This document shows, piece by piece, positions 1,142 to 14,271 of a DNA stretch of 14,647 nt (within the stretch, counting starts at the first letter, position 1; the number at the start of each line of letters is the position of its first letter). Under the pieces are notes generated by a model. That model was not told the DNA's origin, searched no databases, and saw only the letters and a program-made list of their open reading frames with translations. The stretch covers positions 1-14,647 of the forward strand of contig JAJHRB010000040.1 of the NCBI GenBank assembly GCA_020833025.1, in the 5' to 3' direction. The stretch is from Thermoproteaceae archaeon. Its GTDB lineage: Archaea; Thermoproteota; Thermoprotei; Thermoproteales; Thermoproteaceae. The position numbers and the translations under genes were made by a program.

Positions 1142-3895
1142 GTGGTCTTTCATTTGCTCCACCCGAGACTCCAGGAGGCTGTCAGGAGGCTCGGGTACTT
1201 GGAGCCCACGCCGGCTCAGCAGGCCGCGATACCGGTAATACTTTCCGGCGCACATGTATTGCTGGCGGCCCCGAGCGGGTCCGGCAAGACCGAGGCTGCG
1301 CTCTTCCCCGTCCTCTCGAGAATGCTGAGCGAGACCAAGACTGGAGGTGCAGTGCGCTGTCTTTACATCACGCCGCTCAGATCCCTAAACCGCGACTTGC
1401 TGAGGCGCGTTTACGCCGTGACAGACGCCATCGGCGTGACAGTCGCCGTCAGGCACGGCGACACCACGGCATCTGAGAGGAGGCTAATCTCGTCGAGACC
1501 CCCCGACGTGCTCATAACCACGCCGGAGTCGCTGCAGATACTACTCCTGCACCGGAAACTACGCCAGAGCCTCAGGGGAGTTAGATACGTGATAGTTGAC
1601 GAAGTGCACGAGCTCGTGAACAGCAAGAGAGGTGCCCAGCTAGCGCTGGGTCTCGAGAGGCTTGTAGAGCTGGCCGGCGAGTTCCAGAGAGTAGGTCTCT
1701 CGGCGACTGTCGGGGCGCCGGAGCTCGTCGCGGCGTTTCTCGGCGGCGTGGGCAGGAGGGTGGAGGTAGTGAGCGTCTCGGCGAAGAAGCACTACGAGAT
1801 CAACGTAGTGCTCCCCACGCCGTCTGACGGGGACTTCGCCGACGCCGAGAGGCTAGACGCGACGCCGGAGGCTGTGGCGAGGATCAAGAAAGTTGTCGAG
1901 CTCGTGAGGCAGGCGGGGGGCTCTGTCTTAGTGTTCACGAACACGAGGGACGGCGCGGAGTTCCTCGCGTCGAGGCTCAGGAAAATTCTCGGCGACGTCA
2001 TTGAGGTGCACCACTCGTCACTCTCCAGGGAGCATAGGGTGTCCGTCGAGGAGAGGCTCAGACGCGGCGAGCTAAAGGCAGTTGTCGCCACGTCGAGTCT
2101 CGAACTGGGAATTGACATAGGCGAGATAGAGCTGGTGATCCAGTACGGCTCTCCGAGGCAGTCCTCCAGGCTTCTCCAAAGAGTCGGGAGGGGCGGGCAC
2201 AAAGTGGGCGCGATCTCGCGGGGGGTTATTGTCGCGCTTGACTTTGAGGACTACTTAGAGTCAAAGGTCATAGCCGAGAGGGCAGCAAGGGGGGAGCTCG
2301 AGGCTGACATTGAGTATCACGAGAGCGCCCTTGACGTGCTGCTGCACCAGGTCGTTGGCATGGCGCTTGAGGCGAGGCTGGACGGGCGGGAGTTGACTGC
2401 AGAGGGCGTAATGCGCGCCGTCAGGAGGGCGCACCCGTACAGGAACGTAACCGAGGAGGACTTACGCCTCGTACTGGACTTCGCCGAGAGGCACGGGCTG
2501 CTCCGGGGGCTTAGGCCAAGGCGCGGCAGCGTGAAGTATTACTTTGAGAATGTTTCCGTGATACCAGATGGCAAGAGCCTCAAGGCTGTTGACGAAACGA
2601 CGGGAAGGGCCGTCGGCGAGCTCGACGAGGAGTTCGTGCACTCGCTGGAGCCGGGCGCGAGGATAGTGCTCTCCGGCAGGGTCTGGACGCTGACGAGGCG
2701 TGAGGGCGATGTGGTGTACCTGTACCCCGACTATGACGTACGGGGGGCCGTGCCGGCGTGGCTCGGCGAGCAGATACCCGTGCCGTACGAGGTAGCGCGC
2801 GAGGTCTGCGCAAGGCGCGCAGCGGCTCTCCGCGACGCCCTCGCCAGCCGCGCCGAGGTGCCCGTGGATCTGGAGGGCCTTGCAGAGGATCTCATACCAA
2901 AGCCGGGGATGCTCCACATTCACGTCGTGGAGAGAAGGTATGCCGTGATTCACAGCTGTTTGGGATCCAGGGGAAATGAGGCGCTCGGCATGTACCTATC
3001 GCACGCGCTCTCGGCGTATGCCGGGCCCGTGGGGTACAGGTCAGACGCATACAGGGTGCTCCTAATATTCCGCGAGCGCGCCGTCGTGGACGCAATTATC
3101 GAGCTCTTGAGGAGGCCGCAGCACTTCATTTACGCGACGCTGAGAAATGCTGTAAGGAGCTCAAGATTGTTTGCATACAAGTTCCTGCAGGTTGCCAGGA
3201 GGGTTGGCATTGTCAGCAGAGATGCCGAGGAGGTCCCCGCGAGACTCTACGAAGCCTACATAGACGACTTGCCGGGGCTGGAGGCCGTGAACGAAATATT
3301 TGTCGAGAGACTTGACGTGATGGCGTTAATGTCGCTAGTGGAGGGAGTCTCGAGCGGCAGGATGCAAGTCGCCGTCAAGAGACTCGCGAGGCCGACCGCG
3401 CTCGAGAGGCCGGTGCTCGAGGAGGCCCTGCGCGCGGACTTTGCATTCCGCGGCCTCTCGAGGGAGGCCCTCGCAGACCTCGTGAGGAGGCGCATATATA
3501 GCAGGCAGGTAACGCTCCTGTGCCTCAATTGCGGGTGGGCGCTGACAGTGAGGGCCGCGCTGCTTCCCGACGACGTCCGCTGCGCGCAGTGCGGCTTCAG
3601 GGCACTGGCAGTTGTCAAGGGAGTCGACCTGGAGACCGCGAAGCGCGCGCTGAGCAAGTTTAAGCTGCGCCAGGGAATGAGTAAGGAGGAGAGGAAGGTG
3701 CTGGAGACTCTCAGGCAGAGCGCGTCAATAGTGCTCGCGCACGGGAGGCTGGGGGCTCTCGTGCAGCTAGCACATGGCGTGGGCCCGAGAGCTGCCATCA
3801 AGGTGCTTAATAGAGTGAGCAGCGGGGAGGACCTCTGGGCGGCGATAATGGAGGCAGAGAGGCAGTTCGCCGCAACCCGGGGCTTCTGGAGCTGA
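1142..3895 (+). CDS. lhr: Lhr-family SF2 (DEAD/H) ATP-dependent helicase with C-terminal Zn finger, 917 aa
   Basis: Motifs Q (PTPAQ), I (APSGSGKTEAA), Ia (YITPLRSLNRD), II (DEVH), III (SAT), HHSSLS, V (ATSSLELGIDIG), VI (QRVGRGGH), YHESALDVLLHQ, and C-terminal CLNC...CAQC. Confidence 0.95.
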   Translation: MVFHLLHPRLQEAVRRLGYLEPTPAQQAAIPVILSGAHVLLAAPSGSGKTEAALFPVLSRMLSETKTGGAVRCLYITPLRSLNRDLLRRVYAVTDAIGVTVAVRHGDTTASERRLISSRPPDVLITTPESLQILLLHRKLRQSLRGVRYVIVDEVHELVNSKRGAQLALGLERLVELAGEFQRVGLSATVGAPELVAAFLGGVGRRVEVVSVSAKKHYEINVVLPTPSDGDFADAERLDATPEAVARIKKVVELVRQAGGSVLVFTNTRDGAEFLASRLRKILGDVIEVHHSSLSREHRVSVEERLRRGELKAVVATSSLELGIDIGEIELVIQYGSPRQSSRLLQRVGRGGHKVGAISRGVIVALDFEDYLESKVIAERAARGELEADIEYHESALDVLLHQVVGMALEARLDGRELTAEGVMRAVRRAHPYRNVTEEDLRLVLDFAERHGLLRGLRPRRGSVKYYFENVSVIPDGKSLKAVDETTGRAVGELDEEFVHSLEPGARIVLSGRVWTLTRREGDVVYLYPDYDVRGAVPAWLGEQIPVPYEVAREVCARRAAALRDALASRAEVPVDLEGLAEDLIPKPGMLHIHVVERRYAVIHSCLGSRGNEALGMYLSHALSAYAGPVGYRSDAYRVLLIFRERAVVDAIIELLRRPQHFIYATLRNAVRSSRLFAYKFLQVARRVGIVSRDAEEVPARLYEAYIDDLPGLEAVNEIFVERLDVMALMSLVEGVSSGRMQVAVKRLARPTALERPVLEEALRADFAFRGLSREALADLVRRRIYSRQVTLLCLNCGWALTVRAALLPDDVRCAQCGFRALAVVKGVDLETAKRALSKFKLRQGMSKEERKVLETLRQSASIVLAHGRLGALVQLAHGVGPRAAIKVLNRVSSGEDLWAAIMEAERQFAATRGFWS

Positions 3896-3956
3896 CGCCC
3901 CTTTCGGCGGCCCCGAGACGCCGCTAGGCCTCCCGGGCGGGGCCGGCTGACGCGCC

Positions 3957-4388
3957 TCAGCCAAGGCCCTTGGACTTCAGAAACTCCTCGAAGACTTGCC
4001 TCGCGCGCTCCGCGAGCGGGCCCGCGCCCTCCACTCCTATCTCGCTGACGCGAACCTTATCGCCTATCACGACAGTATTAGTCTCCTCTATGTACTTCAC
4101 CATGCCAGGGAATATCCTCTCGGCATACTTTGCGAACTCCCGCATGTCTATCCTCCTCTCAATGCTGTCTATGTGCACGACGAATCTGTGCATTACGAAG
4201 ACGCGCGTATATCTCTCGCCGGTCTTGCTCACGGCATTTGCGAGCGCGATGTTGAGCTGGCTGTCTACTGCGTGCAGCACTCCTCTGTAGACCTCTCCCG
4301 TGGAGAGCACTACCTGGACCTCCCGCCCGATCATGCTGTTGAGTTCTGCCACGAATCGCTTGCTGGATTCCGCAAGGGTCAGAGCCAT
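3957..4388 (-). CDS. Sm-like archaeal protein SmAP3 (Lsm fold plus C-terminal extension), 143 aa
   Basis: Sm1 motif (IGREVQVVLSTGEVYRGVLHAVDSQLNIALANA), Sm2-like RVFV, and a C-terminal domain ending VEGAGPLAERARQVFEEF, as in crenarchaeal SmAP3. Confidence 0.92.
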   Translation of the reverse strand: MALTLAESSKRFVAELNSMIGREVQVVLSTGEVYRGVLHAVDSQLNIALANAVSKTGERYTRVFVMHRFVVHIDSIERRIDMREFAKYAERIFPGMVKYIEETNTVVIGDKVRVSEIGVEGAGPLAERARQVFEEFLKSKGLG

Positions 4389-4410
4389 GAAATTCCCCAG
4401 GTGCTCAAGG

Positions 4411-4417
4411 TTATAAA
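4411..4417 (-). promoter_or_regulatory. TATA box of the SmAP3 gene
   Basis: TTTATAA on the minus strand, 23-29 nt upstream of ATG 4388, which fits a leaderless transcript. Confidence 0.65.
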
Positions 4418-4530
4418 GTTGGCCTAGAGCTGTCGGCGCGGCGACGGAACGCCGCGGGGATGTGCTCCCCGAAATGTGGACTCTGAAGGGGGTCTCAACG
4501 GCGCGCGATCCCTAGCCGGGGACGTGGCGA

Positions 4531-4848
4531 TCACGCAATGCCGATATACACCTTCTCTCCGATCCTAAGTGGCAGCTCTCTCATTATGTCTAGCTGCAAG
4601 CCCCCGATGGAAATTCTTGTCATGCTGCTGTTCACATGGTAGACCACGCCCCATGCGTACACCCTAAACTTGCTCTTGTAGTCCGGATCCTTCTCTTTCT
4701 GAATGACCAGTCTAACGCCGTCTCCCGGGGACAGCTTAATGCCAAGGAGCTCTAGCGGCAGCTCTATCCTAACGTCAGCATCGCCCTTGAGGGTGATGAC
4801 ATTTGGTAGGTCGTTACTCACGCTCTCCACGACGAGAGAGAACTCCAC
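4531..4848 (-). CDS. rpo8: DNA-directed RNA polymerase subunit Rpo8 (RpoG, Rpb8 homologue), 105 aa
   Basis: Small beta-rich protein with YAWGVVY...ISIGGLQL...VYIGI, matching the Rpb8/Rpo8 signature YxxxGxxY...ISxGGLL. Confidence 0.78.
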   Translation of the reverse strand: MEFSLVVESVSNDLPNVITLKGDADVRIELPLELLGIKLSPGDGVRLVIQKEKDPDYKSKFRVYAWGVVYHVNSSMTRISIGGLQLDIMRELPLRIGEKVYIGIA

Positions 4849-4867
4849 GGAGAGCGGGAGCCTGTCG

Positions 4868-4882
4868 CTAAAAAGTTTTTAG
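4868..4882 (-). promoter_or_regulatory. AT-rich palindrome: probable rpo8 TATA element and/or thermosome T-tract terminator
   Basis: CTAAAAA-G-TTTTTAG is a perfect 7-bp inverted repeat, about 20-34 nt upstream of GTG 4848 and about 30 nt downstream of the thermosome stop. Confidence 0.5.
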
Positions 4883-4912
4883 TTCTTTGCTAGCCTGGAG
4901 GCCGGCTGCCGC

Positions 4913-6571
4913 CTAGTCGAGCTCCCCCGTTTTCTTCTCCTCCTCCTTCTTCTCCTCTTTCTCCTTCTCTAGCTTCGACGCGGCGATTATCTCGTCAATT
5001 CTCAAGATCATTGACGCGACCTCCACCGCCACCTTAAGCGCGTTGAGCTTGACCGATAGCGGCTCGATGATGCCGAGGGACATCATGTCGACGACCTTGC
5101 CCTGATACACGTCGAGGCCGTACTTCCAGCCGTCAGACTGCTCGTGCCTGTGCCTCAGCTCGGTGATTATATCAATTGGGTCCAGGCCGGCATTCTCGGC
5201 AAGCGTCTTGGGTATTGCCTCTAGGGCCCTTGCAAATGCCTCTATTGCGTACTGCTCCCTGCCGCCAACCTTGGACGCGTAGCCGAGCGCAGCCCTGGCG
5301 GCCTCTACCTCGGCTGCGCCGCCGGCCGGCAGGATGTACGGCTCCTCGATCACGTCGGCCACCACAGACAGCGCGTCGTCGAGATTGCGCTCTGCCTCGT
5401 CAACGAGCCTCTCAAAGCCGCCCCTGACTAGTATCGATACGGCCCTCGGGTTCTTGCACTGCTCGACGAATACCATCTTCTCGTCGCCAACGCGTCTCTC
5501 CTCGACGAGGCCCGCGAAGCCGAGGTCGGCCTCAGTCAGGTCCTCAATACTTGTCACCAGGCGGGCGCCGGCCGCTCTCACTAGCTTCTCGATGTCGCTG
5601 CGCTTCACCCTTCTCACGGCAAGGATTCCGGCCTTTGCCAGGTAGTACTGCGCTATATCGTCAATCCCCTTGGTCGTGAAGACGGCATTCACGCCGAGAG
5701 ACTTGAGCTTCTCGACGTAGCCTCTGAGGATTTTCTCCTCCTCCTCCAGGAATGCCCTGAGCTGGCTCGGATCGTTAATTCTGATCTCAGCATCTATTTC
5801 GGGCTTCTCAACCTCAAGCGGCGCGTCGAGCAGCGCTATCCTGGCATTAATTATGCGCTTTGGCATTGCCGCATGGACCACTTCCTTGTCGATGACAATG
5901 CCGTAGACAAGCTGCGTGTCGAGCAGAGACCCGCCGTGCTTCTTGACGATCTGTATATTGTCCAGGTCGACGTACCACTTCTCTCCTCTCTCCTCGGCCA
6001 CCTGTAGCACTGCCTTGACGGCAATGTCGGTGAAATACTCCTTGACCGTCTCGCTTATCTTGCCGCTCATTGCCGTCATCGCTATCTTCTTCAGCGTGTC
6101 GACCTCGTTGCGTGACGTCGGCACGGCAATCTTGCGCAGGTGCTCGGTCGCGACGTCGAGCGCCCTCTTGTAACCGCTGACTATCACCGTGGGGTGAATA
6201 TTCTTCTCGAGAAGCTTCTCGGCCTCCTCCAGCAGCGCGCCGGCAAGGACTACGGCAGTTGTGGTGCCGTCGCCGGCCTCCTCCTCTTGCGACTTGGCAA
6301 TCTCGACCATCAGCTTAGCTATTGGGTGCTGGACGTCCATCTCGTCCAGTATTGCGGCGCCGTCGTTGGTTATCGTTATGTCGCCTAACGAGTCTATTAG
6401 CATCTTGTCCATGCCCTTAGGTCCTAGAGTCGTCCGGAGGACCTCCGACACAGCCCTGGCAATCATTATATTAAGCCTTAGCGCCTCCTTGCCGTAAGCC
6501 CTCTGCGTGCCCTCCTTGAGCACTAACACAGGGACGCCGCCAATCTGCGTCAGTATTGCCTGGCTGCTCAC
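4913..6571 (-). CDS. ths: Thermosome subunit (group II chaperonin, beta-like); start probably GTG 6571 rather than ATG 6589
   Basis: [29 protein letters not shown] equatorial motifs and a charged C-tail. The TATA at 6592-6599 abuts ATG 6589 but lies about 24 nt from the in-frame GTG 6571 ([21 protein letters not shown]). Confidence 0.97.
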
Positions 6572-6661: not shown

Positions 6662-6756
6662 GCCCCGGTAGTCTAGCCCGGTCAAGGGCGCGGTCCGGCC
6701 ATGGATGCGGGCCTCTCGAGCCCGTGACCCGGGTTCAAATCCCGGCCGGGGCACCA
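6662..6756 (+). tRNA. tRNA-Glu(CUC) with a 17-nt non-canonical intron at position 21/22 (6686-6702) and encoded CCA
   Basis: Acceptor GCCCCGG/CCGGGGC, anticodon stem CGGGC/GCCCG with loop CT-CTC-GA, T arm CCGGG-TTCAAAT-CCCGG, ACCA end. Removing 6686-6702 restores the D arm GTCT-AGCCCGGTCAA-GGAT. A central helix GGTC/GGCC is flanked by 3-nt bulges AAG and ATG (BHB-like). Confidence 0.95.
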
Positions 6757-7752: not shown

Positions 7753-7916
7753 AGGGTTTTTACAAAGTTCCAACATTATAAACTCTCCGGCGCGGGACGG
7801 CGCCCGGCGCGCCGTCAAAAAGCGGCGCCAGCAGGAAGCCGCGCCGTCAAACGGCGGCCCCGTTATCAGAGCGCGCCGTCAAAAAGCGGCGCCGCCCGCC
7901 GCGGCGCGCCGTGAAA
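7731..7916. repeat. Phased GCGCCGTCAAA repeat array (iteron/operator-like)
   Basis: Direct copies start at 7809, 7841, 7873 and 7906 (the last is GCGCCGTGAAA), with spacing 32/32/33 bp. A perfect inverted copy is at 7731-7741 and a partial inverted copy at 7796-7803. An exact 23-bp duplicate occurs at 7807-7829 and 7871-7893. Confidence 0.88.
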
Positions 7917-7954: not shown

Positions 7955-8344
7955 ATGGAGCCCGAGAGGAGACCCGGAACGGCCGCAGTCGCGCCGGTGC
8001 CGATCCCAGCAATCCCCGCCCGCGTTATCAACATGGACAGATTTGGCAGCAAGATAGAGATATCGCTAAGGCCGCCCGCCCACTGGCTGCACAAGATCCG
8101 GCCGGACGCCCGGCACTACGACGCCGTCCTGCTGCTGCCGAACGGGGTGGCGTACTTCGCGCAGCTGACGCTCCACAGGATCACGCGCGGCGGGATGTGT
8201 CTCTTCTACGTCAGGCGCCCCGCCAGCAAGGCAGTCGCCGAGGTGCTGAGGGCAGCGGAGGCGAAGTACATCGGGGTTCTCGACATAGTGCCGAGCCCGC
8301 CGCTGGAAAGGGGACAAGCCGCAGCAAGTAGGCGGCGCCCATGA
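7955..8344 (+). CDS. Hypothetical small beta-rich protein, 129 aa; first gene of the overlapping operon
   Basis: ATG preceded by a G-run; its stop overlaps the next start (ATGA at 8341-8344). It shows weak similarity to the ORF at 14397. Confidence 0.68.
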   Translation: MEPERRPGTAAVAPVPIPAIPARVINMDRFGSKIEISLRPPAHWLHKIRPDARHYDAVLLLPNGVAYFAQLTLHRITRGGMCLFYVRRPASKAVAEVLRAAEAKYIGVLDIVPSPPLERGQAAASRRRP

Positions 8345-11271
8345 CGGGGGCGCCCGCGGCGGCGCTCGCGGGGGCCCGAGACTCCGTACAGGGCCGCGCC
8401 GCCCCGGCCGCCGAAGTGAAGGAGGATTTAAACGCTGCGCTCGCGGGGGAGCGGGGCGCCGGGACGAAAAATGGGGGGAGTCCCTCCCCGGGGGGCGCGC
8501 TGCACGCGGCGCCTGCACGGGGCGCGCACGAGCCCAGCACAGCTCCTGCACAAGCCCTGCACGCGGCGGGGGAGCAGGGCGCGGGCTGCAAGTGCAGGGC
8601 CGCGTCGCGGCGCCTTGTAGAGTGTAAATGCACGGCGGAGAGCGGCGAGGAGGTAGCGGTCTCCGTGGTGGTTGAGCTTGAGTATGGCTACCGCGTGATA
8701 ATCAACGGCAAGACCGCCGTGAGGGCCGAGAGTCTCGCCGCAATCAAGGTGCTGGAGCCCCTGGAGAAAGCCGGCGTGCCCGACCCAGAGGCGCTGGTGA
8801 GAGAGATTGAGAAGCTTCTTAGAGAAGCAAAACGGAGGGCCCGCGTCTCATGTAGAATGGAAAGCGCCGCGCCGCCCACGATAACCTGCCGCGTTGAGAA
8901 CGAGACGCTTGTCGTTAAGCGGGTCGGCGCCGAGTGGTACCTTGTCGAGCCTTACGTGAGGAGAATAGGGCGGCGCTTGAGCCTTGCCGCCGTCGCGGCG
9001 ATAGCGGAGAAATTCCTCGTAATGCCCGAGCGACTGTACGCCGCACTTGCAGAGGAGATCGGCGAGGTGTGTCCCGAGGCGTGGCGCGTTGTGTACTTCC
9101 ACCCCGCCCACGACTACGTCGAGGGCCTCGGCCCCGTTCTCGGCGTGAGGTACACGAGCGGCGAAAGGGAGCACTTCGGCTACGTCTACGTCAGGGACGG
9201 CAGGCTGGAGCTGGCGGACGTCGCCGCGCCCGTCAAGGATGAGGACGCCATGATCATCTACCGCCCCGCGGTCTCCGACCTCCCCAGCATAAGCGGCGTC
9301 CGCGTGTACTTGCCCGACTTCGTCGAGATTCTAGAAGCGTGGAGGGAGGCGCCGACGTTTGCGGGCGTCGCGCGCGAGGCGGAGACGTACATCCGGAGCC
9401 GCGTGACGGCCCCCGACGTCGACGTCAGGTTCGCAACTGCGTTCATCGTTACGTCGCACTTCTTCGTCGTTGCGAGCTATTACCCGGCCTTCGTCATCGG
9501 CAAGCCCGGCTTCGCCGCTGGCGGCACGACGGCGGCAAAGGTTCTGGCGGCGCTCATGCCGAGACCCGCCGTCCTCCTGGATCCCTCGTGGGCGTCGCTA
9601 TTCAGGGCGGCGCACATCTTTCGCCCGACGTATCTTATAGATGAGGTAATCATGGAGCTCGGCGACGAGGCCCTCCGGAACATCCGCCTGTACCTCGTCG
9701 CGCGGTTTGATCAAGACATGTCAGTGCCGAGGGCGGACGATGGCGGGGCACGCCTCGGCACCTATGTTGTGTACTCCAACGCCATCATAGTTGACCCGCA
9801 GGGTCTCGTTGCAAATCTGGCCGTTGTGAGGCGATCACCGCGCGTCGTTCTCTGCCCTGACCCGAACCGGCGGGAAATTATCACCATAAAAAAAGAGCTG
9901 GAGAAGCCTGAGGTCAGGCGACTCGCCGCGAGACTCTACGCGCTGTTCTTGCGCCACGCGGCGGAAATCAAGGCGGAGTACGACAGGGTGGGCGAGATCT
10001 TCCCCTGCCGCGGCGCCGTCCTGCAGGGCTTCGGGCTCCTGCTCCTCGTGGCGAGGCGCATGGGGCAGGAGTACTTAGACGCCGTGGCGGCTAAGATTCG
10101 CGAGTGGGTTGATGAGGTAGGCCTGATGTATGTTATCGGGGATCCTAGTAAATTGGTCTTGGCCAAGGTGCTGGAAGACATCGAGAACCTCGAGGCTTAC
10201 GTCCGCGCGCGGCTCTCGCCGGAGACAGGTTGGTTGACCCCCGAGTCCGTCAGCGGCTCCGAGCCGCCGAAGCCGTGGCGCGTCGACGTCGAGGGCGGGC
10301 GGGTCGTCCTGTGGACGTATTTAGAGTCCTGGCGCAAATACTTACAGCACGCGCTGGGCGAGCTGAAGCAGGTCAGCCGGCGGAAGGGGACTGGGGAGGA
10401 GACGGAGTGGGTGGACACGAGGGTCAGGGACCTGGGCCCAGCGCTCGATCGGAAGGCCTTCGCCGCGTTGCTAAGACCATACCTCTCACACGTTTTGAGA
10501 CGCGAGGAAACTCGGCGGAACCTTAGAGTCGCTTTCACCTCGCTTGACGACATCGCGAGAGCAAGGGAGGCCCTGAGGAGGGCGCTGCCGGAAGGCAGTC
10601 TCGCCGCGTGCCCGCCCGAGCCGCAGCCGGCGGGAGAGACACGCCCCGTGCATGAGTCACCCGCGCCGGGTGCAGAAACAGTGCAGTCCTCGTGCACGCT
10701 GGGTGCGCCGCCGCGTGCAAGCGCCGAGTGCAAGGCTCGGGGGGAGGAGGGGGAGGGGCATGAAAACACTGAGAGCGGCGGGAGCGGCGCCGCCGCCCCG
10801 CCAGCCCCCGCTGCCCAGCAAGAAGCTGCCACCTCCGCACGGCGCGGGCGCGAGGAGGAGACACCGCAAGACGAAGAAAGGGCGAGGGAGGAGCTTGAAC
10901 GCTTTATCGCGGAGCACGCGGCGGGCCGGTCTCCCTCCCCGCCGGCCGTGGCGCCCCCGGGCGCGAGTGCCGAGGAGAGCGCGCGTGCACGGCACGAGGA
11001 CAGAGTTGAGCGGTGCAAGGCGAACATAATTTGCTGGAACCGCTTGCAGGTCTGCATCTGGCGCGAGCTGAGGGGCTCCCCGGAGGAAAAGAAGAAAGCG
11101 GCGCTGGAGGAGCTGGAGAGACAAGGCGAGCTGTTCCGCAAGTGTCTCGCTGACGCGGAGGAGTATGCCGAGAGGGAGACAGGAAGGGGCGGGAGCTCCG
11201 AGAGCGGCGGGATCAGGAAAATGAGCGCGAGGGAGGTGATAGGACGAGTCAGGAAACTGCTCGGCCTGTGA
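8341..11271 (+). CDS. 976-aa multidomain protein with a degenerate P-loop NTPase domain (MGE replication helicase-like)
   Basis: Walker A-position GKPGFAAGGTT (9499-9531), P(S)WASLFR, Walker B TYLIDE (9631-9645), VPR and a late VVRRS. This order and spacing resemble the P-loop domain of primase-associated MGE proteins, such as those with DUF3631. Confidence 0.75.
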   Translation: MTGAPAAALAGARDSVQGRAAPAAEVKEDLNAALAGERGAGTKNGGSPSPGGALHAAPARGAHEPSTAPAQALHAAGEQGAGCKCRAASRRLVECKCTAESGEEVAVSVVVELEYGYRVIINGKTAVRAESLAAIKVLEPLEKAGVPDPEALVREIEKLLREAKRRARVSCRMESAAPPTITCRVENETLVVKRVGAEWYLVEPYVRRIGRRLSLAAVAAIAEKFLVMPERLYAALAEEIGEVCPEAWRVVYFHPAHDYVEGLGPVLGVRYTSGEREHFGYVYVRDGRLELADVAAPVKDEDAMIIYRPAVSDLPSISGVRVYLPDFVEILEAWREAPTFAGVAREAETYIRSRVTAPDVDVRFATAFIVTSHFFVVASYYPAFVIGKPGFAAGGTTAAKVLAALMPRPAVLLDPSWASLFRAAHIFRPTYLIDEVIMELGDEALRNIRLYLVARFDQDMSVPRADDGGARLGTYVVYSNAIIVDPQGLVANLAVVRRSPRVVLCPDPNRREIITIKKELEKPEVRRLAARLYALFLRHAAEIKAEYDRVGEIFPCRGAVLQGFGLLLLVARRMGQEYLDAVAAKIREWVDEVGLMYVIGDPSKLVLAKVLEDIENLEAYVRARLSPETGWLTPESVSGSEPPKPWRVDVEGGRVVLWTYLESWRKYLQHALGELKQVSRRKGTGEETEWVDTRVRDLGPALDRKAFAALLRPYLSHVLRREETRRNLRVAFTSLDDIARAREALRRALPEGSLAACPPEPQPAGETRPVHESPAPGAETVQSSCTLGAPPRASAECKARGEEGEGHENTESGGSGAAAPPAPAAQQEAATSARRGREEETPQDEERAREELERFIAEHAAGRSPSPPAVAPPGASAEESARARHEDRVERCKANIICWNRLQVCIWRELRGSPEEKKKAALEELERQGELFRKCLADAEEYAERETGRGGSSESGGIRKMSAREVIGRVRKLLGL

Positions 11272-11588
11272 TGCTGCCAAGCTACCGTATCGCGCTTGCG
11301 GTCGCGAAGTATCTCTGCCGCCACCTAAGCGCGGGAATCTTCAGGCTCGTCGACGACATCGTCAGGGACCCCTCGCTGCTGCCCGTCCTGGCGGGGCTCG
11401 GCGCTGTTGAGACCGTCGGCGGCGTGCCCGCGGCGCCGAGGCCGGGAGCGCCGGGGTGGTGGCGCGCCCACGACGCCGTGCTCGACGCCGTGCTCTATCT
11501 CGAGGCCAGGGGCGTCGCCAAGTATCTGCCTGACGTGGGGGTGGTCAACTGGGCGGGCAGGCCGTGCGCTCCCGGCGCGCGGCCGTGA
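11268..11588 (+). CDS. Hypothetical protein, 106 aa, possibly winged-helix
   Basis: Overlaps both neighbours by 4 nt. The C-terminal VLDAVLYLEARGVAKYLPDVGVVNW resembles a wHTH helix plus wing. Confidence 0.65.
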   Translation: MMLPSYRIALAVAKYLCRHLSAGIFRLVDDIVRDPSLLPVLAGLGAVETVGGVPAAPRPGAPGWWRAHDAVLDAVLYLEARGVAKYLPDVGVVNWAGRPCAPGARP

Positions 11589-12733
11589 GCGCCATCACCC
11601 TCAGCGGCCTTTACGGCTTCGCGGATCTGTACGTCAGGGGCAGGCTGGCCGAAGAGTTTGCTAGACAGCGCGGCGTCGCGCCGTGCCGCGAGTACGGCGC
11701 GCCGGCGAGGCTCGGCCTCGTCTGCGACGGCGGGGAGCTCGTCCGGCTGATCCTCGAAGCAGAGAGGGGGCGGCTCAAGAGGGGCGGCGGCCCCAACCAC
11801 CTCTTCATCAGCATGGCCCTGGTGGACTGGCGGCTGTACCACGACCCGCAGGCAAGGCCGCAGTCGTACGTCGCTCTCGACAGGGCGTGCATCGACCTGG
11901 ACATCCCTGCTGAGTGCGCACAGGACAAGTGGTGCCGGGCCGCCAGGCTCGGCAGGCTGAAGGCCGCGCTGCGGGAGAAGCTCCGCAAGTATAGGGACGT
12001 CCTTTGGGCCGAGTGGACCGGCTTCAAGGGCTACCGCCTATGCGCGTGGCTCCCGCGCCTCCTGCCCGCGGACAGGGCGGTGCTGGAGAGGATACAGCTC
12101 TGGCTCGCGAGGGGGCTCGAGGAGTGGCTTGACCGCCACGCCGTCGGCGACGTAAAACGGCTGTTCCGCGTGCCGTACTCAATTAACCCCAAGTCGGGAG
12201 ACAGGGCTGCCATCGTCGACCACCTGCTCGAGGAGCTGTCAGCGCGGGAGACGGCAGAGCGCCTAATGTCGCTAAGGCCGCTCGACGCGCGCGTGCTCGA
12301 CAGGCTCGCGCGGGAGGCCGTTCTCGAGGCGTTCGCGAGGGAGCGCGGGGCGCGCGAGGCCAGAAGGCCGGGGGGCCGCGCGGCGGGGAGGCTCCCGCGC
12401 TGGATCCAGGCGCTGATCGAGTACATGAGACAGACCGGCAACCTGTGCCACGCCGCGCGCGTCGCGGTGGCGCGCTGGCTTTACTTCGCGGGATACAGCC
12501 GCGAGGAAATCATTGGGGTCTTCAGGGCGGCGGCGGACTTCGACGAGAGGAAGACGGCCTACCACGTCGACTACGAGATAAGGCGCATGGGCGAGGAGTG
12601 CCGCGCGTGGCAGCCCGAGGAATGCAGGGAGAGACCGTGGCGCTGCGAGACGGTAGTGAGGACGTGCGAGGGCAAGAAGGTGCCGCCGAGCCTGCCGGAG
12701 CTGTGCCCGGGGCGCCGTGAGGACGTGCATTAA
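11585..12733 (+). CDS. Archaeo-eukaryotic primase: PriS-like catalytic domain fused to a PriL C-terminal-like domain; start probably GTG 11585
   Basis: Motif I IDLD (11891-11902), motif II TGFKGYR (12017-12037), motif III GDVKRLFRVPYSINPKSG (from 12146). The C-terminal LPRWI...GNLCHAARVAVARWLYFAGYSREEIIGVFRAAADFDERKTAYHVDY...PWRCET...C matches the PriL-CTD pattern. GTG 11585 overlaps the upstream TGA. Confidence 0.85.
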   Translation: MSAITLSGLYGFADLYVRGRLAEEFARQRGVAPCREYGAPARLGLVCDGGELVRLILEAERGRLKRGGGPNHLFISMALVDWRLYHDPQARPQSYVALDRACIDLDIPAECAQDKWCRAARLGRLKAALREKLRKYRDVLWAEWTGFKGYRLCAWLPRLLPADRAVLERIQLWLARGLEEWLDRHAVGDVKRLFRVPYSINPKSGDRAAIVDHLLEELSARETAERLMSLRPLDARVLDRLAREAVLEAFARERGAREARRPGGRAAGRLPRWIQALIEYMRQTGNLCHAARVAVARWLYFAGYSREEIIGVFRAAADFDERKTAYHVDYEIRRMGEECRAWQPEECRERPWRCETVVRTCEGKKVPPSLPELCPGRREDVH

Positions 12734-13277
12734 GGTCCTCAGGGAGCTCGAAGAGGCCGCCCGCCGCTGGAACCTCGGCGCGGTCAAGGAGCTGGTGCGG
12801 GAGGCCGCCAGGCGCTGCGGGCCGGGAGAGCTGCGGGAGGCCCTCGCCGCGAGGGTCGCACCGGCGCTCGCGGAGGCGGCGCTCAGAGTTGCGGTGGAGC
12901 TGTACAGGCGGCTCGAGCCGGCGGTGGGCCGGGGCCGCGCGCTGGAGGCGGCGCTCGAGGAGGCCTCCGGCAAGCTGGCGCGTCTCGAGTCGCCGTGCTG
13001 GCTGGCGGAGGCGGCCGCGAGGGCCGTGCCGCAGGCGCTCGCGCGGCTGGGCTGGGAGGGGCCGAGGTGGCCCTTCGCCGCCAGGCTGCTGGTGACCCTC
13101 CACCTCGACTGTGGCGGCGTGCCTGACGGCGTGCTGGAGGCGTTCGGCCCCGAGGAGGCGGCGGCAATACTGTCATTCCTCGAGGAGGGGGCGGCCGTCC
13201 TCGACGCGGGCCCCGCGCCCGTGGCGCTGTACTCGTCGCGTCTCCTGCTGCGCGGCGGGCGGCGGTCACGGCCGTGA
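12717..13277 (+). CDS. Hypothetical Ala/Glu/Arg-rich helical protein, 186 aa
   Basis: Overlaps the primase stop by 17 nt and closes the operon. No family recognised. Confidence 0.65.
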   Translation: MRTCIKVLRELEEAARRWNLGAVKELVREAARRCGPGELREALAARVAPALAEAALRVAVELYRRLEPAVGRGRALEAALEEASGKLARLESPCWLAEAAARAVPQALARLGWEGPRWPFAARLLVTLHLDCGGVPDGVLEAFGPEEAAAILSFLEEGAAVLDAGPAPVALYSSRLLLRGGRRSRP

Positions 13278-13341
13278 CCCCGGCGCCCGGCTCTGCCTCC
13301 GGGCGCGCGCATGTGCTTTCTCTAGTCTCCACGCCCGGTGC

Positions 13342-13492
13342 CCGGTGGTTAGCGTGGTGAGCGTGTTGAGTCTCCGAAGCCCTTGGCAGATATTGAAAAA
13401 TGGGCGGCAAATGTCGAAACCGCTCTCCCGGCTGGCATCGACTCAAGTAAAGCGCAAAGGGGACTAACCACTATCACCGCGCTAACCACCGG
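13342..13492. repeat. 31-bp imperfect inverted repeat, each arm CCGG plus three 9-bp units, flanking an 89-bp spacer
   Basis: Left arm 13342-13372 reads CCGG TGGTTAGCG TGGTGAGCG TGTTGAGTC. The reverse complement of 13462-13492 reads CCGG TGGTTAGCG CGGTGATAG TGGTTAGTC (26/31 identical). Confidence 0.85.
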
Positions 13493-13638
13493 CCGCCGTG
13501 GAGCTGGTCGTGGCTGTTCTTCTATTGCGCGCTTGCCGCCCGGTGGCCGCGGGCCGGCGCGCGCCGGAACCGGCCGGTTCTCGCGCCGCGCGCCAGAACC
13601 CCCGAGTGGCTTATCAAGCCGGAACCACCCCTTGCGGC

Positions 13639-14271
13639 GTGGCCCTCCGCCTCGTGGCCTACGTCCGCGTCTCGCGGGAGGACGAGCGGCCGGAGAACCA
13701 GGAGTTCGCGATATTCCGCTGGGCGGCAGAGAGGGGCCACCAGATAGTCGAGGTCGTGAGGGACGCTGGCATCTCCGGCGCGCTGCCGCCTAATGAGAGG
13801 CCCGGCTGGCAGAGGGCCATGGAGCTGCTCGGGCAGGCAGACGGCGTTGTCGTCTACGCGCTGGACCGCGTGGCGCGCAGCCTGTGGGACCTGGCGCAAG
13901 TCGTCAGGGAGCTCGAATCAAAAGGCAAGCTGCTGATATCCGTGCGAGAGGAGTGGCTGCAGCAGCTGGACCCGAGGGTGCGCCAGCTGATTGTCGGCAT
14001 TCTGGGCTGGGCCGCCGAGATGGAACGCGAGTTCATCCGCGAGAGGACGCGCGAGGCGCTGGCCAGGCTGAGGGCAATGGGCAGGCGCGTGGGCAGGCCC
14101 CCGAGGTGGAGCGAGACGCTGCGCCGCCGCATAATCGACCTCGTGAGGAGGGGCATCACGCTGAGAGATGCCTGCAGGCTCGTGGGGGTAGGCTACAGGA
14201 CGGCGCTCAGGTACCTCAGCCGCGACCCGGAGTACCTCAAGGCGAGGGCCGAGGCGAGGCTCAAGGGCTGA
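13639..14271 (+). CDS. Small serine recombinase (resolvase/invertase type) with C-terminal HTH, about 210 aa
   Basis: Catalytic YVRVS, D-x-G-I-S-G, RPG, LDRVARS, the E-helix AEMEREFIRERTREALARLRAMGRRVGRPP, and HTH GITLRDACRLVGVGYRTALRYL. TTATCAA at 13611-13617 supports GTG 13639 rather than 13498 as the start. Confidence 0.93.
   Translation: MALRLVAYVRVSREDERPENQEFAIFRWAAERGHQIVEVVRDAGISGALPPNERPGWQRAMELLGQADGVVVYALDRVARSLWDLAQVVRELESKGKLLISVREEWLQQLDPRVRQLIVGILGWAAEMEREFIRERTREALARLRAMGRRVGRPPRWSETLRRRIIDLVRRGITLRDACRLVGVGYRTALRYLSRDPEYLKARAEARLKG

Follow-up and report, generated by a model that had tools for sequence, protein, structure and literature searches.

The stretch of DNA analysed here (the window, 14,647 nucleotides; contig JAJHRB010000040.1 of the Thermoproteaceae archaeon assembly GCA_020833025.1) carries a gene for a single-chain primase, in which a PriS-like archaeo-eukaryotic primase (AEP) domain is joined by a basic linker to a domain resembling the C-terminal domain (CTD) of the primase large subunit, PriL. 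The gene stands in a module with a large protein, small proteins and a serine recombinase, on an island that begins at a tRNA gene (Table 1). As a whole, the locus is best explained, with a probability of about 0.7, as encoding a mobile-element primase with a relocated four-cysteine metal centre. Residue numbers refer throughout to the 389-amino-acid (aa) frame that opens at 11564; those of the 382-aa protein are lower by seven.

Table 1 Features of the window and of two further contigs of the same genome, with positions, strand and basis.
Feature	Position	Strand	Basis
tRNA gene, left border of island	6662..6756	+	ARAGORN tRNA-Gly(GCC); Rfam tRNA, 54 bits
Large neighbour, 976-aa open reading frame (ORF; 868 aa as called elsewhere)	8341..11271	+	Upstream of primase in L005 and L007-L009
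106-aa protein, translationally coupled to primase	11268..11588	+	66% identity in L007-L009, 37% in L005; always just 5' of primase
Single-chain primase gene	11585..12733	+	382 aa from GTG 11585 (389 aa from in-frame GTG 11564); ORF list, translation
AEP catalytic domain, aa 10-265	11591..12358	+	AlphaFold2 model, VIA-align, Foldseek, hhalign
Motif I, D111-L-D113 in IDLD (metal ligands)	11894..11902	+	Acidic at 111 in 82/86 and at 113 in 83/86 relatives
Motif II, G153-F-K155-G-Y-R158, Arg for the usual His	12020..12037	+	Alignment of 86 relatives
Motif III Asp, D190	12131..12133	+	D in 82/86 relatives
Motif IV sensu Kazlauskas et al. 2018, R202-V-P-Y-S-I-N208	12167..12187	+	Definition from PMC5862659
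Basic flexible linker, aa 255-277	12326..12394	+	Arg-rich; includes the sole segment of model confidence <50 (270-273)
PriL-CTD-like helical domain, aa 278-389	12395..12730	+	Pfam, NCBIfam, hhalign; profile and fold matches
P278-R-W280 at the canonical PPC (first Fe-S ligand)	12395..12403	+	hhalign aligns LPRW with PPC of host PriL
L294-C295-H296-A-A-R299, relocated Cys beside the His and Arg of the PriL initiation surface	12443..12460	+	Alignment of 86 relatives
Insertion with C346 and C354 (CX7C), small beta hairpin in model	12587..12628	+	In 20/86 relatives
C361, C368, C381, counterparts of canonical Fe-S ligands 2-4	12644..12706	+	hhalign to the three C-terminal Cys of host PriL
186-aa protein, overlaps primase 3' end by 17 nt	12717..13277	+	ORF list; weak homologue 3' of primase in L005
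Serine recombinase (Resolvase and helix-turn-helix)	13498..14271	+	PF00239, E 4.9e-33
AEP and helicase pair, contig C35 (L023)	2140-3903 and 3435-5282	-	
AEP and helicase pair, contig C63 (L003)	309-1760 and 1742-2689	-	

The primase gene and its product

The reading frame runs without stops from 11564 to 12733, in a region of about 70% G+C. Because the GTG at 11585 shares bases with the stop codon of the 106-aa ORF before it (GTGA), and because the homologues align with their first residue at this position, a start at 11585 appears likelier than one at 11564. An earlier reading of the DNA, made from its letters alone (the sequence-only reading), had placed a primase ORF at 11585-12733, and the open frame, the overlap and the starts of the homologues agree with it. 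More than 40 metagenomic homologues of equal length share 68-75% identity with the primase, its CTD exceeds the cut-off of Pfam PF04104 (see below), and its AlphaFold2 model, built with 86 relatives in the alignment, reaches a mean pLDDT (predicted local distance difference test) of 93 with a pTM (predicted template modelling score) of 0.72; the ORF is therefore genuine, with support well above chance. The pLDDT falls below 50 only at residues 270-273. This segment, and the pTM of 0.72 set against the pLDDT of 93, suggest that the modelled protein consists of two rigid domains joined by a free hinge, at the Arg-rich stretch (~255-277) that had earlier been read as a basic linker.

A minimal AEP catalytic domain

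As modelled, the N-terminal domain has the AEP/PriS fold. Structural alignment of residues ~10-265 with VIA-align returned human PRIM1 (Z 13.1), the PrimPol of cyanophage S-2L (Z 12.3) and RepB' (Z 12.0), as well as PriS of Sulfolobus (Sso, Z 10.9) and Pyrococcus (Pho, Z 10.8), with matches to PRIM1, PriS, PrimPol and RepB' covering 170-210 residues. Foldseek matched the CRISPR-associated Prim-Pol (CAPP) at E 4.8e-7 and a probability of 1.00. At the level of sequence, the family profile aligned with the PriS of the host genome in hhalign (97.9% probability, E 5.6e-13), and a profile search of Protein Data Bank (PDB) sequences reached archaeal PriS at E about 1e-14. The Pfam model DNA_primase_S (PF01896) matched 25 of the 86 relatives and not the query primase itself.

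AEP motifs I-III, claimed earlier from the letters, are indeed located in the translation as IDLD, TGFKGYR and D190, and motif I is aligned by hhalign with the DID of host PriS. Motif II (G153 in 81/86 relatives, K/R155 in 82/86) lacks the histidine of the AEP sxH signature: position 158 is His in 43 of the 86, Tyr in 16 and Arg in 15. As all 13 close homologues that were aligned have Arg158, the change reads from the alignment as a family trait and not as damage. It has precedents, since the motif II His is lost in other active AEP families and is loosely conserved in mobile-element AEPs, where the Arg of motif IV compensates; that motif is defined by a conserved Arg six residues ahead of an Asn or His, and this Arg is essential in PolpTN2 (PMC5862659). 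Here motif IV is well kept (R202 and P204 each in 82/86, H/N208 in 80/86), so that the triad of the query primase comprises Arg158, Arg202 and Asn208. No PriS Zn-knuckle follows motif I, only a lineage-specific CX5C (C118, C124) in a region where most relatives carry nothing. The catalytic domain is a minimal AEP, without either the Zn-knuckle or the C-terminal domain of PriS.

A helper domain related to the CTD of PriL

The sequence-only reading had described the C-terminal part as PriL-CTD-like and as lacking the PriL N-terminal domain, and both descriptions hold against the domain matches. PF04104 covers residues 270-366 with 29.3 bits against a cut-off of 22.4 (E 6.9e-7); four PriL models of NCBIfam match the same stretch partially, far under their whole-protein cut-offs, as a lone domain should. 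The family profile aligned with host PriL in hhalign at 99.3% probability (E 7e-21), and the profile search of PDB sequences recovered PriL-CTD structures from yeast and human (E 2e-8 to 5e-7). The family profile was required for this, since phmmer of the single primase sequence against PDB chains gave noise only. In VIA-align, residues 271-389 matched photolyases and cryptochromes (Z up to 7.8), PriX (Z 6.6) and yeast PriL-CTD (Z 6.3) over ~90-105 residues. These scores of 6.3-7.8 are modest for a helical domain, yet consistent with the sequence evidence. Because the resemblance of PriL-CTD to the active-site region of photolyase is published (PMC2852410), photolyases, PriX and PriL-CTD are together the relatives expected of a PriL-CTD. 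The domain is thus PriL/PriX-like, an unrelated fold being the outcome that would have overturned the earlier reading, and the C-terminal part is a PriL-CTD without the PriL N-terminal domain. It retains the His/Arg/Tyr surface of PriL-CTD (H296, R299, Y333), with H296 conserved in 84 and R299 in 82 of the 86 relatives.

A separate observation concerns a second group of single-chain primases among metagenomic sequences (P0044-P0051, ~330 aa). Their CTD is 73-75% identical to that of the query, as close as in the query's orthologues and with the CX7C insertion included, and their AEP domain is only 21% identical, with motif II reading GGKSLY. The helper domain thus seems, from these identities, to have been exchanged between two catalytic lineages. 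Such swapping of the CTD between unrelated catalytic domains supports a view of primase as two autonomous modules.

Displacement of the first cysteine

The C-terminal part holds exactly six cysteines, C295 (NLCH), C346 and C354 (both EEC), C361 (WRC), C368 (RTC) and C381 (ELC). The position of the canonical PPC reads PRW, as had been seen at the outset and as the alignment with the PPC of host PriL bears out; C295 lies 15 residues past it. The six cysteines listed by the sequence-only reading are all present, although only four of them are conserved in the clade, the two EEC cysteines belonging to a lineage-specific insertion, where the model signals strand at residues 346-349.

We tallied cysteine states over the 86 aligned relatives. 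Position 280 is Cys in 40 and Trp in 33 of them, and C361, C368 and C381 are Cys in 74, 75 and 76, respectively. A canonical state (n = 38) combines PPC or RPC with three C-terminal Cys and with a Leu-His pair flanking Ser, Asp or another residue; in the canonical clade, position 295 is Ser or Asp. A relocated state (n = 34) combines PxW with LCH and the same three Cys. In a cysteine-free state (n = 10; P0079, P0093, P0105, P0112, P0115, P0117, P0118, P0125, P0131 and P0132), neither 280 nor 295 is Cys and no C-terminal Cys is present, and the His/Arg/Tyr surface is still kept. The states are almost mutually exclusive; two relatives (P0080, P0108) have both Cys280 and Cys295.

In a tree built without the five trait columns, the relocated state forms a single clade of 36 rows (Shimodaira-Hasegawa-like approximate likelihood ratio test, SH-aLRT, 97) whose internal branches are deep (0.4-1 substitutions per site), and C295, C361, C368 and C381 are each found in 34/34; these two facts indicate that, as far as the alignment can tell, the shift arose once and was then kept. 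The state occurs under Thermoproteales names and in Thermoproteales genomes. Further residues characterise the clade (W280, V281, W305, R360, V364, P374 and mostly H334), and its last two Cys stand further apart in sequence. On the canonical side of the tree, the cysteine-free sequences fall into two groups. Wherever ligand 1 was lost and C295 was not gained, the remaining three Cys are gone as well, a pattern that speaks for selection of the four Cys as a set.

Two additional pairs of cysteines are confined to the close family, the CX5C after motif I (11915-11935) and the CX7C of the CTD insertion (12599-12625), which may be disulfide staples. The cytosol of Pyrobaculum is reportedly rich in disulfides, which fits this idea.

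An integrated mobile element

Canonical PriS (contig C91) and PriL (contig C19) are both encoded elsewhere in the host genome. To the left of the border tRNA lie chromosomal genes for an Lhr-type helicase and a thermosome subunit; beyond it, the G+C content goes up and Pfam families occur only in the primase and the serine recombinase. The tRNA gene, ~95 nt long, probably has an intron. Outside this locus, its 3' half is strongly repeated only once in the genome, within another complete tRNA gene on contig C19 (98% identical), and no attachment (att) site was found among the genome repeats of this half; the right end of the island lies past the contig.

The large neighbour and the small neighbours gave no Pfam match, even at E up to 10, and the large neighbour and the 106-aa protein none in Pfam, NCBIfam or PHROG. 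The large neighbour has long low-complexity ends and Walker A- and B-like motifs (GKPGFAAGGTT and YLIDEV) without the Walker lysine, and its AlphaFold2 model has no confident fold (pLDDT 50). A structure search of the ESM Atlas pointed to phage DUF3631/DUF3854 proteins, often fused to Toprim primases, so that the large neighbour may be a helicase. The serine recombinase probably serves the element as its integrase or resolvase.

The module of large protein, small protein(s), primase and serine recombinase recurs on other contigs, with ~80% identical copies of the recombinase beside it in L005, L007 and L008. In L005, a 146-kb Pyrobaculum-like contig, the element (4778-16751) is bounded on one side by a tyrosine integrase and on the other by a serine recombinase broken into two ORFs, and includes about ten unannotated genes and a gene for a thermopsin-like protease. 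As its large protein is 39% and its primase 71% identical to those of the window, the comparison indicates that the L005 module is mosaic in origin. Carriers of the close homologues include two named Pyrobaculum sp. metagenome-assembled genomes (MAGs), and the named members are all labelled 'hypothetical protein'. More distant relatives of the LCH type include a database entry for a hypothetical protein of 'Pyrobaculum genetic element 1' and a sequence from Thermoproteus MAGs.

The distribution is patchy. Two-domain matches occur in 3 of the 62 species genomes of the order (the window genome and two others); one further genome has N-terminal-only homologues, and all the rest only cellular PriL. 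Across 301 sampled genomes of the phylum, ~10 have two-domain copies, two of them interrupted by stops; the two same-order copies are of the LCH type, and the copies in two genomes of another Thermoproteota family (L034, L035) are cysteine-free but keep the His/Arg/Tyr surface. Searches with tblastn against phage and plasmid collections gave no match to the primase, a PHROGs search yielded nothing useful, and a scan of GTDB genomes returned no confirmed relative. The separate PriS and PriL of the host, the tRNA-flanked island, the recurring module, the patchy distribution and the relative from 'Pyrobaculum genetic element 1' make it likely that the gene encodes the replicative primase of a mobile element integrated in a Pyrobaculum-like archaeon of the Thermoproteales.

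Comparison with known primases

One-piece primases of PriS plus PriL-CTD are already known (NEQ395, PolpTN2), and the architecture itself is not new. NEQ395 and its DPANN relatives are fused cellular primases that bind [4Fe-4S] and still prime after removal of the cluster (PMC10250227, PMC3914693), and Raymann et al. suggested that fused primases might be common in integrative elements (PMC3914693). NEQ395 of Nanoarchaeum equitans resembles the protein described here in its single chain of ~400 aa, in which a linker connects a PriS core to a PriL-CTD and the PriL N-terminal domain is absent (PMC10250227, PMC3914693), and in having four Cys (C289, C364, C376, C384), the last three close together near the C-terminus (PMC10250227). 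Through these four, whose spacing is similar to that seen here, NEQ395 binds its [4Fe-4S] cluster (PMC10250227), a precedent for the proposed metal centre. By its description, however, it has the typical Cys arrangement of PriL, where the present protein has Trp at PPC and Cys at LCH; the present protein also has Arg in place of the motif II His. NEQ395 is also a cellular replicative primase (PMC10250227), a role that does not suit a gene in a mobile island, whose host has separate PriS and PriL and whose full-length copies are patchy in order and phylum.

PolpTN2, from the Thermococcus plasmid pTN2 (PrimPol-PV1 supergroup), is likewise a mobile-element fusion of an AEP and a PriL-like Fe-S domain (PMC3973330, PMC5862659). 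There, too, conservation fails at the motif II His and holds at the motif IV Arg (PMC5862659), as it holds here at R202. In contrast to the present protein, PolpTN2 is 923-945 aa long and includes PriCT-1, a winged helix and both PriL domains, extra domains for which 382 aa offer no room, and it keeps four Cys aligned with the PriL ligands (PMC3973330), where here the first ligand is displaced; its motif II residue is Gln and not Arg. The family profile did not detect the single PolpTN2 sequence (hhalign probability 0.2%), and so this fusion, the only one compared, is no full match of the kind that would have assigned the protein to a known family of mobile-element primases.

Both domains are homologous to the host subunits of the cellular PriS/PriL primase (with PriX in Sulfolobales), the His/Arg/Tyr surface is shared and the fold matches PriX. 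The protein departs from the cellular enzyme in consisting of one chain, in lacking the PriL N-terminal domain as well as the Zn-knuckle and C-terminal domain of PriS, and in the displacement of its first Fe-S ligand. Finally, pRN1 ORF904 and RepB' are monomeric mobile-element primases with a tethered helical domain needed for initiation; the alignment with the RepB' chain including this domain scored Z 11.7 (root-mean-square deviation 10.2) against 12.0 for the catalytic domain alone. Their helper domains have no Cys cluster and are only distantly related to PriL, whereas the one described here is a PF04104 PriL-CTD, and no SF3 helicase is fused to it. What sets the family apart is its small size combined with a mobile element, its lack of detectable similarity to PolpTN2, the Arg of motif II, and the displaced Cys with Trp at the old site. 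In the literature, we found no description of a displaced Cys with Trp at the PPC site, and nothing specific on the family or on a 'Pyrobaculum genetic element'.

Alternative explanations

That C295 is a true fourth ligand of a cluster is a tentative assignment from sequence comparison, with chances a little short of even, and several points weigh against it. The relocation is one evolutionary event, and the covariation counts sequences, not independent events. C295 aligns with yeast Arg351, whose human counterpart we take to be Arg302; simple helix geometry puts it about a helix length away from the canonical ligand, and without remodelling it may be too distant from the canonical cluster site. 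Yeast Arg351 lies on the nucleotide/DNA-binding surface, at the end of helix 1 distal to the canonical ligand (PMC2852410). The C-terminal stretch of the model aligns with yeast PriL-CTD to residue 471 in VIA-align, a hint that the last three Cys occupy the canonical site, although half of AlphaFold's input alignment consisted of canonical sequences. Cytosolic disulfides are known in Pyrobaculum and offer another use for conserved Cys. As for the module, the Atlas lead is the single pointer to a possible helicase nature of the large neighbour. An alternative that we regard as rather unlikely would keep the mobile-element primase and do without the Fe-S cluster in its CTD: the Cys would form structural disulfides, a Zn site, or a three-Cys cluster with an open or non-Cys fourth position, C295 would sit at the nucleotide/template surface by H296 and R299, and the domain would act like the cluster-free PriX and PriCT helpers. 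The surface-facing position of C295 in both yeast and human PriL-CTD speaks for it, as do the ten relatives in which the fold works without any of these cysteines, the match to PriX, as good as that to PriL-CTD (Z 6.6 vs 6.3), and the extra CX5C and CX7C pairs, which look like hairpin staples. Moreover, cluster-disrupting mutants of NEQ395 still prime in vitro (PMC10250227), and Fe-S-independent priming is reported for Sulfolobus (PMC5700102). On the other hand, each of the three C-terminal Cys has its counterpart among the aligned Fe-S ligands of host PriL, they and C295 are invariant (34/34) across a very deep clade, and where ligand 1 was lost unreplaced the other three were lost too, as co-selection of four ligands predicts.

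A primase-polymerase domesticated by the host for repair, damage tolerance or defence (cf. PrimPol, polymerases of non-homologous end joining (NHEJ) and CRISPR-associated Prim-Pol) is an improbable reading. The top Foldseek and profile matches do include CAPP (E 4.8e-7 and 2.6e-15) and LigD/NHEJ polymerases, the LigD_Prim-Pol model of Pfam touches 22 of the 86 relatives, and a link of the cellular archaeal primase to double-strand-break repair is reported (PMC12019639). However, the Pfam, NCBIfam and PHROG scans showed no CRISPR, Ku or ligase genes nearby, a serine recombinase and a large ATPase-like protein accompany the gene in an island of mosaic make-up and patchy occurrence, and a PriL-CTD is a hallmark of de novo initiation and not of gap filling. 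Two canonical signature residues are missing, the Walker A-like motif of the large neighbour has no lysine and the recombinase homologue in L005 is split, all of which might mark an inactive remnant of a decaying element, with the His to Arg change of motif II and the lost first Cys as disabling lesions. We consider this highly improbable and reject the gene as a decayed pseudogene: both changes are fixed in dozens of full-length homologues that are otherwise strictly conserved at 68-75% identity, the frame has no frameshifts or stops, the model is confident (pLDDT 93), and the gene is translationally coupled to its neighbours.

Proposed mechanism and significance

We propose that the mobile-element primase with a relocated metal centre works as follows, by analogy with PriS-PriL, NEQ395 and pRN1. 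The AEP domain would add nucleotides through D111, D113 and D190 (as in PriS-PriL and NEQ395), the incoming nucleotide being positioned by a triad of R158, R202 and N208 where His, Lys/Arg and His are usual. Through its H296/R299/Y333 surface, the tethered CTD would bind both the template and the initiating nucleotide and swing onto the active site, where the first dinucleotide would form (as in PriS-PriL, NEQ395 and pRN1; PMC10250227). The AEP domain would then extend the primer, which may be passed to a polymerase that the sequenced part of the island does not encode. The primase would work alongside the large ATPase-like neighbour, a possible helicase, and the serine recombinase. Host independence and thermostability, both proposed by the sequence-only reading, are putative properties of the enzyme. 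C295, C361, C368 and C381 would form a four-Cys metal centre, most likely [4Fe-4S], whose first ligand would have moved 15 residues, from PPC to LCH, with Trp280 filling the old place.

A more far-reaching version, speculative and in our view unlikely, is that the metal site has been rebuilt: the cluster would lie about one helix length nearer the His/Arg surface, with Trp280 and Trp305 in the old pocket, or a three-Cys cluster would have an open iron, and the canonical and cysteine-free sister lineages would complete a natural three-state series. The role of the primase [4Fe-4S] cluster, as a structural brace or as a redox switch, has long been debated. If the rebuilding is true, the three-state series could test the purpose of the cluster. 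This small monomeric family offers three natural versions of the helper domain, with canonical ligands, with one ligand displaced or with no cysteines, each fused to its catalytic partner and thus simple to express and compare; the chief value of the family lies in this compact series as a probe of the primase Fe-S domain. The primase marks an uncharacterised family of Thermoproteales integrative elements, and extends the short list of mobile elements from this order by a replication module that had not been annotated before. A 382-aa primase from a hyperthermophile may also be of practical use.

Further observations

Two sets of repeats in the window are candidate origin or recombination sites. 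Three 23-nt repeats, spaced by 32 nt, lie between divergent genes at the head of the operon (7807-7893), and an imperfect inverted repeat of 49 nt, with arms 65 nt apart, closely precedes the serine recombinase (13336-13498). At the start of the contig, an ORF that runs off its edge (3-884) has a Cas12f1-like TNB (TnpB-type) zinc-ribbon domain. Elsewhere in the same genome, two more AEP proteins (587 and 483 aa) each adjoin a UvrD-like SF1 helicase, on contigs C35 and C63, and are probably other mobile-element replication modules. In the AEP protein of C35, the family profile aligns from motif II into the first PriL-like helices, where the sequence reads RW...LRH, without cysteines.

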